Shown here one piece after another: positions 44,912 to 57,053 of a stretch of 64,000 nt of DNA. The notes under the pieces were generated by a model that saw only the letters and a list, made by a program, of their open reading frames with translations, was not told the DNA's origin and searched no databases. A program made the translations under genes and the position numbers. The DNA comes from Escherichia coli phage phiS, in sequence record PP449093.1; one strand, given 5' to 3'. Within the stretch, counting starts at the first letter, position 1. The number at the start of each line of letters is the position of its first letter.

Positions 44912-45025
44912 TTATGAAAGATGATGAATCATTGAAAATTGCACTGGTTATGCTATTACAAGGTATAGAATTAGCAAACCACGAAAAAATGTTGAAACAA
45001 CAGCGTGAAATTATGAGAGGTGATT

Positions 45026-45349
45026 ATGATCGAGTTTGAAATTGACAACTTTCACGAAAAAGCAGAAGACCTAACCAAAATTTTGATTAGTCGAGGTGCA
45101 TATAATACGAAAGATATTATAAAAGAAGTTAATGTAGCGATGGACGCGATCCGAAAGGAATTTAAACACATTTCAGCGATTGGAGAAAATGGTCATCTTG
45201 AAGATGTTGAGCTGGTAGCACTGCGACGCTATTACTTCTTTGTTGATTGTATCATTGATCTAGCTAAAAATTATAGTCATTACATGAAAGATATTGTAAA
45301 AGATGCACGTAAGCTGGCAGAGAATGTTTACGGGAAGTTTCCAGAATGA
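45026..45349 (+). CDS. Hypothetical protein (107 aa), paralog of 44579..44911
   Basis: As above; RBS GAGAGGTGA. Confidence 0.5.
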   Translation: MIEFEIDNFHEKAEDLTKILISRGAYNTKDIIKEVNVAMDAIRKEFKHISAIGENGHLEDVELVALRRYYFFVDCIIDLAKNYSHYMKDIVKDARKLAENVYGKFPE

Positions 45350-45594
45350 AATTAGAGCAAGCGATTGTATACTTTGAGATGGGCTATGATATTGCTCGTG
45401 TAGAGTGGGAAGATGGTGATTTTGTCCGATTGATTGATCTTCCAGAAACAGCTATTGCACTGGTCAAAGTAGAAAACGGCATACAACGAAATTACGCGTT
45501 CTCTGACGAAGACAAACAAGCAGATGACTGGTACGCTACATGTTTTCATCATACAGCGTCAAAATGTGATTCAGGGGCTTCTATGCGCCAATAA
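45346..45594 (+). CDS. Hypothetical protein (82 aa)
   Basis: ORF from the track. Confidence 0.5.
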   Translation: MKLEQAIVYFEMGYDIARVEWEDGDFVRLIDLPETAIALVKVENGIQRNYAFSDEDKQADDWYATCFHHTASKCDSGASMRQ

Positions 45595-45596
45595 AA

Positions 45597-45630
45597 AGAA
45601 GGGGAGGCCGAAAGGCTTCCCCTTTAAGTT
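45597..45630. terminator. Bidirectional terminator between convergent early (+) and late (-) transcription units
   Basis: aagggga-ggccgaaaggc-ttcccctt hairpin with flanking A/T runs. Confidence 0.55.
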
Positions 45631-46285
45631 ATCTAATCCTTCCGAGGATTCTGGCAGATTGATTGCAAAGAGTATCTAAATTCTCAATGTCAATATCCGG
45701 TTTATTCTTCCATGCAATGGAGATACTACCAGAATAGACATTATCGAGATTGAATATAGGACAAGAATACATAACCCCTATATCGATACTCTCTAATTTC
45801 TTTTCTCTTGATGGAATATACTGGAAATCTTTATCGGTAAAATAGGATTTACCTAAAAGATGTCTACGATATTCTTCACTCGTTTTATTGATAGGGAATC
45901 CGCCTAAATTTTTTTCATCGATTGTATGCGGTAGCTTTCCTTCATATGCCACCAAATCAACAAAATAGTTTAGGTTTTTCGGACGAAAACTAAAAACAGC
46001 AGAAAAATCGGCATCAGCCGACACATGAACTATCTGTAACTGCTCCTGTGCTGCATTATCAAAATTGCGGTCTTTCTCTACCTGGAGAACGTGAGCATAA
46101 GTCTCATAACGAGTCTCTTTATAAAGCGCAAATAACTCGTTTTTACTATAAACGACAAATGCTAATATAGACAACACGACGGCAGCAAAAACACGAAGTA
46201 CGAGCAACTCCGTGCTTTTAGTTGTGAAAATAGCGCGCAGGACATTTGAGATAGCAAAGTCTTTCCCTTTTTCAGAAACTTGCAT
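45629..46285 (-). CDS. t: Holin T
   Basis: 218 aa; LQIVHVSADADFSAVFSFRPKNLNYFVDLVAYEGKLP and CNQSARILGR match T4 holin T as I recall it. Confidence 0.9.
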   Translation of the reverse strand: MQVSEKGKDFAISNVLRAIFTTKSTELLVLRVFAAVVLSILAFVVYSKNELFALYKETRYETYAHVLQVEKDRNFDNAAQEQLQIVHVSADADFSAVFSFRPKNLNYFVDLVAYEGKLPHTIDEKNLGGFPINKTSEEYRRHLLGKSYFTDKDFQYIPSREKKLESIDIGVMYSCPIFNLDNVYSGSISIAWKNKPDIDIENLDTLCNQSARILGRIR

Positions 46286-46318
46286 ATAATGCCCTAAGAT
46301 AACTATGACAGTGTACTC

Positions 46319-46558
46319 TTATTTAGGTAGTTGACTATCACTAGGTTTATCTTGCTCGTTGCTATCTTCTGACTGATCTTTATTAAACTCCTTATAAAGT
46401 TCTTCCACAAAACGATCATCAATTGGCGTATTGGTATAAGCCGCAAGACGACGAGCGCAATAGAAGAAAATTTTAGTGAGCATTTTTTCACTAATTAACT
46501 TTGACAATAATTTCATTCCGAAATTAGACAAAGCACCAATGACGATATTATAGACCAT
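46319..46558 (-). CDS. Hypothetical protein (79 aa) inserted between gene 38 and t
   Basis: Strong RBS AAGGAGAA; hydrophobic N-terminal stretch IVIGALSNFGMKLL and acidic C-terminus. Confidence 0.5.
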   Translation of the reverse strand: MVYNIVIGALSNFGMKLLSKLISEKMLTKIFFYCARRLAAYTNTPIDDRFVEELYKEFNKDQSEDSNEQDKPSDSQLPK

Positions 46559-46622
46559 AGCCGTTTCTCCTTAGTAGTTTCCCTTCCGTGGGAGTTTTCC
46601 TTAATTCTTTTTATAATTAAGT

Positions 46623-47405
46623 CTAAACAGCCGGTCCGTAAATGGCTCCGCGATTTTGCCACGTTGGGGCAGACCCTATAACAGCATAACCGGCATCGCC
46701 GCCATTGTATTCATATCCTTGACCACGAATATTACATCTACCTCCTGCGGCGCCTACCTCACCACCGCTTCCGCCATTATAGACATCGTTCATGGACCCC
46801 GAACCAGGCGCATAAAGAGTACCAGCAGTTGCGCCTGATTGCATGTTGGCAGATCCACCAGCAGCACCAAACGGACGACCGCCGCCACCACCAAAAGTTA
46901 ATTTCATTGGTTTCGTAGGAGAATAATACCCACCACCTCCACCGCCACCGCCGCCAGCGATAGCACCGCCATTATTAATTCTTAGCCTCCCACCAATATC
47001 ATTTTGAATACAATGACCCCCAGCTGATCCAGGACTATTGCTACCGCCATTCCCTCCACGACCATACATCGTTACGCCATGTATATTCAACTGAACATAT
47101 TCATTCGGTGTATCTCCATACATAAAGAATAAAGGAACATCTTTAGAATATGATACTAAATCTCCAGTGATATTAAACACTATAGGTGTACTACCTGCCT
47201 CAAAGCATCTATCACGGAACCACTGACCATTGAAGTTATGGTCTGCTCCAAGTGTATGAATAATTTCTCGCGAGCGACCTGCAAATTGACTCATCCAGCA
47301 AGGAACACCCAATCTTAATTGACCAGCCGCTTGACTCATCCATCGTTGTCCTGTTTCATTTACGGATGAACTACCAATCCAACCAGGAACACCAACTACT
47401 GCCAT
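46623..47405 (-). CDS. 38: Receptor-recognising adhesin gp38 (T2-type, glycine-rich motifs)
   Basis: Poly-Gly segments [12 protein letters not shown] and [15 protein letters not shown] typical of T2-like gp38; follows gene 37. Confidence 0.8.
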
Positions 47406-47441
47406 AATTTATACTCCAAAGGGGGCATTGCCCCCTTGTTG

Positions 47442-50342
47442 TTAGAATTTAAAATATTTACTAATTTTGCGAGCAATTTTAGTGAAGAAAGGAGTTTTCA
47501 ATTCTTTAATTTCTTCACTCATTTCCTGAATAGCCTTAATTAAAAGAGCATTCACAGCAGAGTTAGAAATTGTCAGAACATCGTCTGGATTATCAAGATT
47601 GCCAACCTTTGAAGATTTTACAGCTTCCGGTAATATTTCTTGTAAATCCTGTGCGATAATGCCGATCTCGTGACCGATAATTTCACGGTCTTTAAGAGAT
47701 TTAACTTTATCGTAAGTTTTCACTTTCAGTTTGCCAATTAAACTTAACGCATTTCCTGTATAATCTTCTATATTGTCTTTAAGGCGACGATCTGAACGAA
47801 TATACACATCGTTAAAGCTACCGTTTCCGGTTGCGTTAAATTCACCGCTTGCGTGGAATTGGAACTCCCCAGCTTGAACATGAAGAACAGCGGCTGCGGT
47901 ATTATTACCATCACCGGGACAATGAACGTCCATAGCAGCGATATATTGACGCCCCCAATCAACCGCTTTCCAAACAGCATGAGCACTGTCAATACTTTTC
48001 TGGCAGTCAACCAACAAACCAGCAGGGCGGTCTCTCCATGAAACATATGCACCACCATCAACTTCACCACGGATAAGTCCTTGATCTGCGGCATAAGGAA
48101 CACGCCCTTCCAGTTGAATCATTGCGCCCTTAAAGTGATGACTAAATGGTCCACCGTGGTTATTGCGAATATGTAAAATACCCTCATCGGTCGCCCAAAT
48201 AACAGCCTTTTCTGTTTCGCTAGCATCTCTAAACCAGATATGGCGTGCACCAGTTGAGTTTTTGATGGTTATTCCATTAGGTCCACGCACGGTCAAAGCA
48301 CCGGATACATCAAATAAAACGGTGTCATCTGTTCTACGTTCCGTATAGAAGTGATAACCTTTGGAATCACCGATTTCCATTACTGCCGCGCGTCCAACTT
48401 CTGAATTTCCCCAATTGTTGATAGAGAATCGTTCAGAGCTATTATTCATCTGATTTAGGTATAATGTACCGTCAGTGAAGGTTTCGCCAAAGAATCTGGT
48501 TTTAACGCCGTTAGTACCCCCCACGCGTTCAAATTCAGCCAAGAAACCTTTGGAATCTCGCATACTCAAAACGTTATTGCGTCCTGTATTACTGTTACCC
48601 CAATGGATTAATTCAATATAGTCCATTGACTGACGAGACCCTGATCTAAACACCATATTATCTTCGATGCGGGTGCTACCATCAATTCCCAGATGTAAAC
48701 AGCGTGCGGTAGCTGTGCCACCTAGATCTAATCCACCTTCGGCGAAATCATAGCTGAATGGTCTACGAGTATTCCAATTTCCAAAAGAATCTTTTAAATC
48801 GGTAGTCAGTATATGGAAACTAGTACCATCATTTCTAAAAATTAAGCCATAATTGCCACCTTTAACAGCCAAACGAGCATTTTCAGATAATGCAACTTCG
48901 CTATTCATTACAATTTTCTGGCCTTTACCGCCAGTAATATGCAATTCACCGTTTTCGATCAAGTTTATTGAGTTTTGACCGTTATCGTTCCACCAAATAA
49001 AATCTTTGGTCGTCAAATCACCAAAACCAAACCAGCCATTACGAACATCTTGACCAGTGCGATAATCCATAAAATTAAAATGGCTTGCTTCGTTTGGTCC
49101 TCGACGAATATCAATACCAGCATTAGAACCGGAACCTAAGCCACCATCGATGGTCAATCTACGAATATGCAAACCGGTTACAGCCGAAAGCAATAATTGT
49201 TGGGTTACATCGGTATATCCAGTAGCAAGACGATAATTTTGGTCATCAACACTTTCGTGCCAGATAGTGGCAGGACCAGAGCTTCTAAACCGACGTAACA
49301 TCTTTTTAGCATTTGTCGGTTGTTCGTTCATATGCTCAATGTCATATTGTCCTTGATGGTTGCCAGCAAAATTTAATGTTCCACGGTTACTGAAACTGTT
49401 AAAAGAGCGTATTGTATATGCATCATAGATATGATCAGCTACAGGTTTTTCGCCTACATATTCAGGTCGATCAAGTACAGTTAAATTAACATCGCTGGAC
49501 GCTTGATATTCAGCCATTACCATATTAGTAAATTCGAAGTAACATGCATAGATATCATAAGTGTCATCACCTGTATTAATGGCACAAAATTGATTTTCGT
49601 AACCGGAAACATGATGATACGCAACAAAGTTAATTCCTTTAGGCGAACCGTTGCTAGTCCTTATAACAAGTTCAATAATATTACATTGTCCAGTTCGTCC
49701 TACGTTCCACCCATTTCCACCAATCAATCTAATTTTCAAGCCACGTCCGTCATTTTGCGGAATAAAGGCGGTAGCAATTTTAAACCATCCACTTTCTACA
49801 CCAAAGTTGATGGTCTTCTGGAACATCCGATCTACTTCTTGCTTGCTGTATACATTCAATTCCGACGGACTAGGCTTATCTCCTTCGTGATACATGCGAT
49901 ATGAATATGCTAATACACCATCGGCATTATAACCATAGGTTTTTACAGTAGGGACAATGCTAGAACCATAAGTAAAATCAAACCCACGAGCATGATTGAT
50001 ACCGCTAGGATGGGGAATATGCAAAGCAAGTGCTAGATGACCATCCATATCATTAGTGCGAAATGCCCCGAATTTGTCAAGATTTCGTGCGGTCGGATCA
50101 TCGAAATAGTTTGCGGTATTACTCCACACAAGGTCACCCACAACCACGCGACCGTTTACATTAAAGCCTTTGTCATAAACAGGAGGGCAGCTTAAATTAA
50201 CAATTTGCCCATCATCATTTTTTGTAAGCAGATATTGGTCTGCTAAGTTAATTGCCAACTCTCCCGGATTCATCGTACCAGCATCCGGTTTACGTCCGGC
50301 TGCGCTAGTGCGTTTAAACTGGATTCTGTTTAAATCTGCCAT
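47442..50342 (-). CDS. 37: Long tail fibre distal subunit gp37
   Basis: MADLNRIQFKRTSAAGRKP...GELAINL resembles the T4 gp37 N-terminus. The C-terminal ~120 aa look like an intramolecular chaperone domain. Confidence 0.9.
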   Translation of the reverse strand: MADLNRIQFKRTSAAGRKPDAGTMNPGELAINLADQYLLTKNDDGQIVNLSCPPVYDKGFNVNGRVVVGDLVWSNTANYFDDPTARNLDKFGAFRTNDMDGHLALALHIPHPSGINHARGFDFTYGSSIVPTVKTYGYNADGVLAYSYRMYHEGDKPSPSELNVYSKQEVDRMFQKTINFGVESGWFKIATAFIPQNDGRGLKIRLIGGNGWNVGRTGQCNIIELVIRTSNGSPKGINFVAYHHVSGYENQFCAINTGDDTYDIYACYFEFTNMVMAEYQASSDVNLTVLDRPEYVGEKPVADHIYDAYTIRSFNSFSNRGTLNFAGNHQGQYDIEHMNEQPTNAKKMLRRFRSSGPATIWHESVDDQNYRLATGYTDVTQQLLLSAVTGLHIRRLTIDGGLGSGSNAGIDIRRGPNEASHFNFMDYRTGQDVRNGWFGFGDLTTKDFIWWNDNGQNSINLIENGELHITGGKGQKIVMNSEVALSENARLAVKGGNYGLIFRNDGTSFHILTTDLKDSFGNWNTRRPFSYDFAEGGLDLGGTATARCLHLGIDGSTRIEDNMVFRSGSRQSMDYIELIHWGNSNTGRNNVLSMRDSKGFLAEFERVGGTNGVKTRFFGETFTDGTLYLNQMNNSSERFSINNWGNSEVGRAAVMEIGDSKGYHFYTERRTDDTVLFDVSGALTVRGPNGITIKNSTGARHIWFRDASETEKAVIWATDEGILHIRNNHGGPFSHHFKGAMIQLEGRVPYAADQGLIRGEVDGGAYVSWRDRPAGLLVDCQKSIDSAHAVWKAVDWGRQYIAAMDVHCPGDGNNTAAAVLHVQAGEFQFHASGEFNATGNGSFNDVYIRSDRRLKDNIEDYTGNALSLIGKLKVKTYDKVKSLKDREIIGHEIGIIAQDLQEILPEAVKSSKVGNLDNPDDVLTISNSAVNALLIKAIQEMSEEIKELKTPFFTKIARKISKYFKF

Positions 50343-50410: not shown

Positions 50411-51901
50411 TTAGAAAGTACCAAAATCAATTACCGCATTGAGCGGAACAGCGCCAACCTCATCAGGAGTTGGTTTATGTCCTTCGTGGTATAATTCAAA
50501 GGTATCGGTGTCCTGAGTATTGCCACGAGATTTAACGAAAATAATTTTAGAATCATGTGTGATTCCTAGTTTCTCGTGCGCTTTAATATCGCTAACACGA
50601 TGAATCATTGCTGTACCATTTAAGCTATTAAGTCCAGCGTAGCAATTATCACCATTATAGTTAGCTTCGGCTGTATGAACGCCGTTTGCAGCAGGAACCG
50701 TCAACGCACCTGTCATGGTATCGCCAGTCACATTAACATAGCGAGCATCAGCCAATTTACGGTGATCTACATAGTTCCATGCGGTCCACGAGTTACCGGA
50801 ACAAGAACGCCAGCAAACAGGATGATTAATTGATTCAGGGTAATAGACCTGAACAACTCGAACAGTACCAACCGCATCTTCCGGTCGATATACCATCAAA
50901 ACACCGTTATAATAGCTATCAGATGGTTTATTTTGTCCGGCTTCGGCATTCTCCACCCTGAACATACCGCGATTAATAAGGGTATTCCAATCAACATTTC
51001 CAATGATAGTTGGACTAGCTACCATTGCTTTTTTCTCAAAGTAGCTCAATCTAACCAGATCATTAGGTCCAGATGGATCGGTTGTCACAAGCATTTTGGG
51101 CGCTTGCAAATTACCTTCCATAATGTCACCAGCACGCTTAACTTGCGCGTCATTGGTGACATTACCCAATCCTACGTCGGCTTTAGTAGGCTTGTTGTTG
51201 GTATGATAAAAATTACCTTCACTACCGTTAACAAAAATTTTAGGCTCGTTCTTGCTACGAAATACTAAAGTATCAAGAACGTTTCCATAATAAATGTTTT
51301 CAGCATCGAAAGTAATAAAATCCCGATCCCTCGCAACCAGCTTAGAATCAACCGACAATTTAAAATTAACCGTGTTTAAATTATAAGTTCCGGTGATTGT
51401 ATCGCCTTGTCTGGAAACCAAATCCAAATCATTGTTTGTTGGCTTATTAACAGGACTATAGACGCGTTGACCAGTGTCTTTAATGGTTGTCCCTTCGATG
51501 GTCCCTTTAGTTTTAAAATCACCTGTGGTAGTGTCAATATAAGCCATGATAACATCATCACGAGCATTAACAAAACCAATAGATTTCCACGAATGCAGAC
51601 CCCAACTTACGCCATCAAAGTTAGCCGCATCACTATTTCCTTTAAAGATCCCGTTCTTTTTGGTTTCTCCACCGGATGCGCTACCTACGCTTAAACCTTC
51701 CTCAAAATGGACCTGCTTTTGAAATGTGCCACCGTCTTTAGCACTAACAGCATCAAAATCGGCAGCCGAAGGTTTATCAAAAGCGGTATAGATTTTATGA
51801 CCTTTGTAGAAAAGCTGATCCCCCGCTGGCTGGATCGTCAAGTTTCCTTGCGTCCAAATGGGAGATCCGCCTACAGTAGATCCATGTTTCAAATCTGCCA
51901 T
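50411..51901 (-). CDS. 36: Long tail fibre subunit gp36 (enlarged, 496 aa)
   Basis: MADLKHGSTVGGSPIWTQGN resembles the T4 gp36 N-terminus; position between 35 and 37. Confidence 0.8.
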   Translation of the reverse strand: MADLKHGSTVGGSPIWTQGNLTIQPAGDQLFYKGHKIYTAFDKPSAADFDAVSAKDGGTFQKQVHFEEGLSVGSASGGETKKNGIFKGNSDAANFDGVSWGLHSWKSIGFVNARDDVIMAYIDTTTGDFKTKGTIEGTTIKDTGQRVYSPVNKPTNNDLDLVSRQGDTITGTYNLNTVNFKLSVDSKLVARDRDFITFDAENIYYGNVLDTLVFRSKNEPKIFVNGSEGNFYHTNNKPTKADVGLGNVTNDAQVKRAGDIMEGNLQAPKMLVTTDPSGPNDLVRLSYFEKKAMVASPTIIGNVDWNTLINRGMFRVENAEAGQNKPSDSYYNGVLMVYRPEDAVGTVRVVQVYYPESINHPVCWRSCSGNSWTAWNYVDHRKLADARYVNVTGDTMTGALTVPAANGVHTAEANYNGDNCYAGLNSLNGTAMIHRVSDIKAHEKLGITHDSKIIFVKSRGNTQDTDTFELYHEGHKPTPDEVGAVPLNAVIDFGTF

Positions 51902-51934: not shown

Positions 51935-51942
51935 TATTTATA
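51935..51942 (-). promoter_or_regulatory. T4-type late promoter TATAAATA upstream of gene 36
   Basis: Minus-strand TATAAATA about 35 nt upstream of the gene 36 start. Confidence 0.5.
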
Positions 51943-57045: not shown

Positions 57046-57053
57046 TATTTATA
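57046..57053 (-). promoter_or_regulatory. T4-type late promoter TATAAATA upstream of gene 34
   Basis: Minus-strand TATAAATA about 30 nt upstream of the gene 34 ATG. Confidence 0.5.

Follow-up and report, generated by a model that had tools for sequence, protein, structure and literature searches.

The product of 46623-47405 in Escherichia coli phage phiS (PP449093.1) is an adhesin-type gp38. Judged by its homologues, predicted fold and genomic setting, it is likely to be a monomeric adhesin with which a Krischvirus caps its long tail fibre, with Tsx as predicted primary receptor and with a gene drawn from a Tequatrovirus-like cassette. Positions throughout are those of the whole stretch of DNA that was analysed (64,000 nucleotides, hereafter the 64-kb window). 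Host range in T-even-like phages is switched chiefly through gp38. The family, structure and modular evolution of the adhesin encoded here have already been published, as has a Krischvirus gene order that puts gp38 beside the holin region, and the exact protein is already public, a 100% identical entry being present in NCBI (WWV92261.1, 'tail fiber [Escherichia coli phage phiS]').

Family, fold and glycine motifs

The gp38 open reading frame occupies 46623-47405 on the minus strand, runs from ATG to TAG, encodes 260 residues and is intact, with a Shine-Dalgarno sequence ahead of its start codon. The features of the gene and of its conserved parts are as follows.

46623..47405 (stop codon included), minus strand: gp38 long-tail-fibre adhesin coding sequence, 260 aa (open-reading-frame list, Pfam, PDB and NCBI identity)
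47268..47405, minus strand: N-terminal attachment domain (Gp38_N), about aa 1-46, predicted to dock on the tip of the gp37 trimer
46929..46955, minus strand: nine-Gly motif, aa 151-159, predicted core of the polyglycine-II sandwich (run, codons and conservation)
46857..46892, minus strand: Gly-rich motif, aa 172-183 (conservation in homologues)

The Pfam profile GP38 (PF05268) matches aa 47-259 over its positions 1-217 of 218 (2.2e-72; 243.9 bits against a cut-off of 25), and Gp38_N (PF21721) matches aa 1-42 (1.3e-19; 70.3 bits against a cut-off of 25). The role given here to the N-terminal domain follows Trojet 2011 (PMC3157838) and the structure of the S16 complex (6F45). PHROG 2056, annotated 'tail fiber protein; host specificity', also matches gp38 (8.6e-112), and the sequence matches in the PDB are the receptor-binding domain of PP01 gp38 (9V85, 4e-79) and the S16 gp38 of the gp37-gp38 tip complex (6F45_D, 3e-48).

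An AlphaFold2 model of gp38, built from a 68-sequence alignment, reached a mean pLDDT of 87.2 and a pTM of 0.80. Its N-terminal ~45 residues are helical and of low confidence in the monomer, as is expected because this segment folds against gp37. A Foldseek search of the PDB with this model returned 9V85 (TM 0.89, rmsd 2.2 Å, E 3e-27, 67% identity) and 6F45_D (E 6e-22, TM 0.77), and nothing besides these two below E = 3. The predicted fold is thus that of PP01 and S16 gp38, a beta-helix combined with a polyglycine-II sandwich.

Glycine makes up 23.5% of the protein (61 residues) and 32.4% of aa 113-260. The sequence-only reading had remarked on long Gly runs that separate short variable segments; both of the strings it quoted are present, the first run really being one Gly longer, as a nine-Gly stretch at aa 151-159 with YY next, and the second Gly-rich motif being located at aa 172-184. 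Because the Gly codons are mixed (GGC/GGT/GGA/GGG), the run is not a DNA homopolymer. When the C-terminal half was shuffled 20,000 times, runs of at least nine Gly arose in only 47 cases, but conservation is a stronger argument than these shuffle statistics. Across 68 homologues, the three tightest Gly motifs are near-invariant, with mean column entropies of 0.25-0.42 bits: the nine-Gly motif (0.42 bits) has G152-G156 invariant in 68/68, and aa 172-183 (0.32 bits) has G172-G176, P178 and G180 invariant. The Gly-rich motif at 211-222 is looser (1.03 bits), and the segments between motifs are hypervariable (1.7-2.5 bits). These column entropies bear out the pattern that had been read from the sequence; since the motifs are conserved whereas the loops are hypervariable, the division of gp38 into poly-Gly motifs and short variable segments is real and selected.

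Two other accounts of the gene have to be weighed against the adhesin. In T4, gp38 is a chaperone and no component of the virion. A protein of that type would serve gp37 assembly from outside the virion and leave receptor binding to gp37 itself, and the only arguments for placing the phiS protein there are the name of the gene and its position downstream of gp37. However, BLASTP against T4 gp38 revealed no relationship, its best match spanning 11 residues at E = 1.9, so that the alignment named by the sequence-only reading as its refutation did not emerge; all Pfam and PDB matches go to the adhesin family, and gp37 of phiS ends in an S74 self-chaperone domain of the S16/T2 type, not in a T4 needle tip. 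We regard a chaperone role as extremely improbable; the adhesin assignment was already that of the sequence-only reading, and Pfam, PHROG, PDB matches and predicted fold agree with it. An equally slight chance attaches to the idea that the gene is decaying or without function and that its Gly runs reflect low complexity or chance. Slippage can yield Gly-rich low-complexity sequence, but here the frame and its translation signals are intact, the Gly codons are mixed, the invariant motifs and varying loops over 68 homologues contradict decay, the AlphaFold2 model is confident, and an identical protein is found in a deposited phage genome.

Receptor subtype and the loop allele

The subtype of the adhesin was addressed through identities to gp38 proteins of known receptor, computed for whole gp38 and separately for aa 113-260, the C-terminal specificity domain.

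FL04, Tsx: whole 93.8%, C-terminal domain 90.5%
FL15, Tsx: whole 93.5%, C-terminal domain 91.2%
RB3 (identical to RB5), Tsx: whole 91.2%, C-terminal domain 85.1%
Bas35, Tsx: whole 89.6%, C-terminal domain 87.2%
T6, Tsx: whole 88.1%, C-terminal domain 85.8%
EV240, OmpA: whole 84.5%, C-terminal domain 74.3%
M1, OmpA: whole 80.8%, C-terminal domain 68.6%
RB49, OmpA: whole 56.6%, C-terminal domain 63.8%
AR1 (loop residues A-E as published for PP01), OmpC: whole 66.2%, C-terminal domain 56.3%
FL08, OmpA: whole 63.2%, C-terminal domain 52.9%
T2, FadL: whole 50.4%, C-terminal domain 51.0%

The receptors of FL04 and FL15 are known from the loss of infectivity on tsx deletion (PMC12032242), that of Bas35 from complemented tsx dependence (PMC8594841), and those of EV240, RB49, JK23 and others from genome-wide screens (bioRxiv 10.64898/2026.04.02.716166); RB5 and T6-like adhesins recognize Tsx (PMC3157838), and Tsx binders share essentially one HVS set (Trojet 2011, PMC3157838).

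The C-terminal domain of phiS gp38 is 85-91% identical to those of Tsx binders, as against at most 74% for binders of OmpA, OmpC and FadL. In a neighbour-joining tree of C-terminal domains, it forms a clade with all of the Tsx binders, comprising FL04, FL15, T6, PST, RB3/RB5, Bas35 and JK23, in 199/200 bootstraps, in which it is sister to FL04 + FL15 and has the longest terminal branch. Its loop lengths all equal those of T6, whereas loops B and D of the OmpA, OmpC and FadL types contain indels. Because its C-terminal domain falls inside the Tsx-dependent clade and its loops have T6 lengths, Tsx is the most probable receptor. The sequence-only reading had spoken of a T2-type adhesin; the family is upheld, but alignment with both phages shows T6 as the closer of the two (88% identity versus 50-52% to T2), and 'T6-type' fits the protein better by this comparison. 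Tsx, the most likely receptor, is missing from the examples that it had offered (OmpA, OmpC, FadL and similar).

Five receptor loops have been defined in PP01 gp38, loop A being W119-I124 (PMC12892980). Mapped onto phiS gp38 through the AR1/PP01 alignment, they correspond to the following segments.

47031..47045, minus strand: receptor loop A, aa 121-125, GSNSP (mapped; hypervariable, 1.74 bits)
46896..46925, minus strand: receptor loop B / HVS2, aa 161-170, containing TKPMK (mapped; 2.51 bits)
46839..46856, minus strand: receptor loop C, aa 184-189, GSANMQ (mapped from PP01)
46779..46793, minus strand: receptor loop D / HVS3, aa 205-209, MNDVY (mapped from PP01)
46710..46733, minus strand: receptor loop E / HVS4, aa 225-232, NIRGQGYE (mapped from PP01)

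The 16 residues by which phiS and FL04 gp38 differ are concentrated in the wider loop segments (12/16 within 46 residues; Fisher p = 3e-7), with four substitutions in loop B, two in loop C, three in loop D and one in loop E, all lengths being identical and most residues shared. Loop B has TKPMK in phiS versus FSQMR in FL04, and differs by four substitutions from FL04, RB3 and T6; in loop C, A186 and N187 differ from FL04; loop D has MND versus VNG; and in loop E, Y231 stands in place of an FL04 serine. Among the 68 homologues, M205 is unique and D207 nearly so.

The uncommon loop-B allele TKPMK was matched in just two database proteins, P0006 and P0127. In these, the loop B/C combination (TKPMK + AAGGSAN) recurs, joined to other N-terminal domains and to other alleles of loops D and E. 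Segment shuffling at the Gly motifs has been described by Trojet et al. (PMC3157838), and the combinations in P0006 and P0127 are of this kind. The TKPMK loop-B allele is absent from the phage genomes of a 50,697-record collection, in which the best C-terminal identity is 90.8%, and the TKPMKL allele from the supplements of the 2026 receptor-screen preprint; a literature search on phage phiS returned nothing relevant and no phenotype for the phage or for the TKPMK allele.

These substitutions raise the question of whether the same adhesin might have acquired a shifted or widened specificity through its loop B/C/D allele (TKPMK, SAN, MND). Such a change might take the form of recognition of a variant form of Tsx found in other E. 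coli, Shigella or Yersinia strains, of added OmpA or LPS binding, or of a loss of dependence on K-12 Tsx. Besides the concentration of changes in receptor loops and the essentially unique M205 and D207, P166 and D207 occupy two of the three host-range sites that set T6 apart from PST, a phage of wider host range (T6 167 and 208), D207 aligning with T6 G208 and PST I208. Published cases show specificity to be alterable by very few loop changes: PST gp38 differs from that of T6 only by Q167R, M168I and G208I, and PST gains recognition of OmpA and of Yersinia (PMC3157838); likewise, a single HVS3 residue (RB68 Q206L, in the pair RB51/RB68) switches the receptor from OmpF to OmpW (bioRxiv 10.64898/2026.04.02.716166). 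Against this, phiS gp38 has the loop lengths, and shares most of the loop residues, of adhesins proven to bind Tsx, and it nests within the Tsx clade at 199/200. We therefore hold a shifted specificity to be unlikely, although by no means negligible, and it is only tentatively that the phiS loop allele may be seen as a naturally evolved specificity variant, which might recognize a variant form of Tsx, or a further receptor, beyond the reach of FL04 and T6. Were this true, phiS and FL04 gp38 would constitute a ready-made pair for mapping loop residues to Tsx loops. The assignment to the Tsx-dependent subtype itself, although not new in kind, gives a usable receptor prediction for phiS.

A Tequatrovirus-like cassette in a Krischvirus backbone

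Across the 18 kb around gp38, identity to E. coli phages of the RB49-like genus Krischvirus is 93-96%, and 45001-46613 is 98.3% identical to RB49. The gene itself lies directly downstream of gp37, on the same strand and 36 nt away, and gp37 is chimeric, with nt 1-1817 matching Krischvirus FL20 at 94% identity and nt 1838-2901 matching Tequatrovirus ECML-134 at 92.6%. The elements concerned are listed here.

47442..50342, minus strand: gp37, distal long-tail-fibre subunit, 966 aa (PHROG 1699, 1e-157; Pfam Gp34_trimer and Peptidase_S74)
47442..47795, minus strand: gp37 C-terminal intramolecular chaperone domain, aa 850-966 (Peptidase_S74, SDRRLK)
46633..48505, minus strand: Tequatrovirus-like cassette, comprising the last ~355 gp37 codons and gp38 (88.5% DNA identity to RB3)
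47417..47435, minus strand: RNA hairpin AAGGGGGCAAUGCCCCCUU, following the gp37 stop codon and preceding GGAG, the Shine-Dalgarno sequence of gp38 (-15.5 kcal/mol, z -3.2)

A tblastn search of the 64-kb window with RB49 gp38 matched only the gene at 46623-47405, so that no second gp38 was found there, nor was any counterpart of the remote gp38 locus of RB49 found in the window; the relative FL04 carries a single gp38. Taken together, the sequence comparisons support import of gp38 and the gp37 tip, as one Tequatrovirus-like cassette, into a phage of Krischvirus backbone. The phiS locus is a clean example of the known, and not new, exchange of gp37-tip + gp38 modules between Straboviridae genera.

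The boundaries can be followed at close range. On the gp37 side, the resemblance to Krischvirus FL20 and KFS-EC (94% and 90%) extends over the N-terminal ~605 codons and gives way, at about 48505-48525, to one with Tequatrovirus ECML-134 and RB3 (93% and 88%) over the last ~355. At the downstream junction (46601-46633, minus strand), RB3-like identity stops 10 nt before the gp38 stop codon, and RB49-like identity (98.3%) resumes about 10 nt past it, within what are the last gp37 codons of RB49. Just after the stop codon, the string TTAAAA(A)G is common to both parents, and this shared microhomology suggests a microhomology-mediated crossover.

In RB49, the order is gp37, dc5, t, with no gp38 in between; its gp38 is at a separate locus near rI and tk (AY343333 45367-46143), and in five Krischviruses, this type of locus is about 55 kb from gp37 (bioRxiv 10.64898/2026.04.02.716166). 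In phiS, gp38 is followed by a 79-aa ORF and then by the T holin. This ORF (46319-46558, minus strand), which has no Pfam match, is homologous to RB49 ORF251w/'dc5' (PHROG 402) and precedes the holin gene t. As it directly follows gp37 in RB49, the cassette was inserted just upstream of it. The gp37-gp38 arrangement of phiS is also found in the Krischviruses FL04, FL15 and MIZ4, and a Krischvirus arrangement with gp38 beside gp37 was noted by Lutz et al. 2025 (PMC12032242). Krischviruses thus have two architectures, with gp38 either remote or at the canonical position, and phiS belongs to the second group.

The C-terminus of gp37 aligns with S16 gp37 of the 6F45 complex. Its Peptidase_S74 match covers aa 850-909 (2.3e-15), and its SDRRLK motif, which aligns with SDRRIK of S16 gp37 (6F45), begins at Ser850, leaving a C-terminal piece of 117 residues. 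By analogy with the family, this piece is predicted to be cleaved off, which would expose the tip for gp38.

Upstream of gp37 on the minus strand lies gp36 (50411-51901; 496 aa), with a weak match to Pfam Phage_T4_gp36 (2.5e-6); its length is that of gp36 in RB49 and FL04, and more than twice the ~217 aa of the Tequatroviruses RB3, T6 and PST. Exact T4 late-promoter boxes (TATAAATA) occur twice in the 64-kb window, at 51935-51942 and 57046-57053, both on the minus strand, a count not above chance, so that position is the sole argument for function. The box at 51935-51942 precedes the gp36 start codon by 33 nt, a placement consistent with late co-transcription of gp36, gp37 and gp38. Scans for sigma-70 promoters and intrinsic terminators around gp38 gave sites no commoner than in shuffled sequence. 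RB3, FL04, T6 and T2 retain the hairpin between gp37 and gp38, with stem changes that compensate one another; it might affect mRNA stability or translational coupling.

These elements can be combined into a proposed route to adsorption, for which S16 and the homologous adhesins serve as the guide. gp37 would trimerize with the aid of its own C-terminal S74 chaperone domain, which would be cut from it at SDRRLK, and the N-terminal ~45 residues of gp38 would dock on the tip so exposed, as in the S16 complex. By homology and predicted fold, the remainder of gp38 forms the beta-helix and polyglycine-II sandwich, in which the conserved Gly-rich motifs serve as a rigid core and from whose distal end five hypervariable loops jut. 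Through these, gp38 would bind the extracellular loops of an outer-membrane beta-barrel protein, resulting in reversible adsorption. Loop lengths and sequences place the protein in the T6 / RB5 / FL04 subtype, and since members of this subtype are Tsx-dependent, Tsx is the predicted primary receptor. The gene would have arrived with the Tequatrovirus-like gp37-tip cassette and taken the canonical site between gp37 and the holin region.

Relation to known gp38 systems

The resemblance to T4 gp38 is confined to gene name and map position, the sequences being unrelated. T2 gp38 (FadL/OmpF) belongs to the same family and has the same place after gp37, but is only 50-52% identical, and its N-terminal attachment domain is also divergent (49.6%). 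RB49 gp38, again of the same family and from the genus of the phiS backbone, has only 57-59% identity overall and 64% in the C-terminal domain; its loop B is shorter and its loop D longer.

PP01 gp38 (9V85) and S16 gp38 (6F45) have in common with the phiS model the beta-helix, the polyglycine-II sandwich and the protruding loops, and S16-type gp37 shares the SDRRxK chaperone motif with gp37 of phiS. However, these two adhesins are 67% and 42% identical to phiS gp38, their loop sequences are unrelated, and their receptor is OmpC, as compared with the predicted Tsx.

The order of Gly-rich motifs and hypervariable segments in T6 and RB3/RB5 gp38 is identical to that in phiS. By contrast, these phages are Tequatroviruses, whereas the gene resides in a Krischvirus backbone in phiS, the loop residues differ, and the C-terminal tail, NVGAIYGPRV in T6 and RB3/RB5, is different in phiS. 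FL04 and FL15 gp38 have the same 260-aa length, in the same gp37-gp38-79-aa ORF-holin order and in a Krischvirus backbone, although the gp37 shaft of FL04 differs from that of phiS, identity beginning only at 47828.
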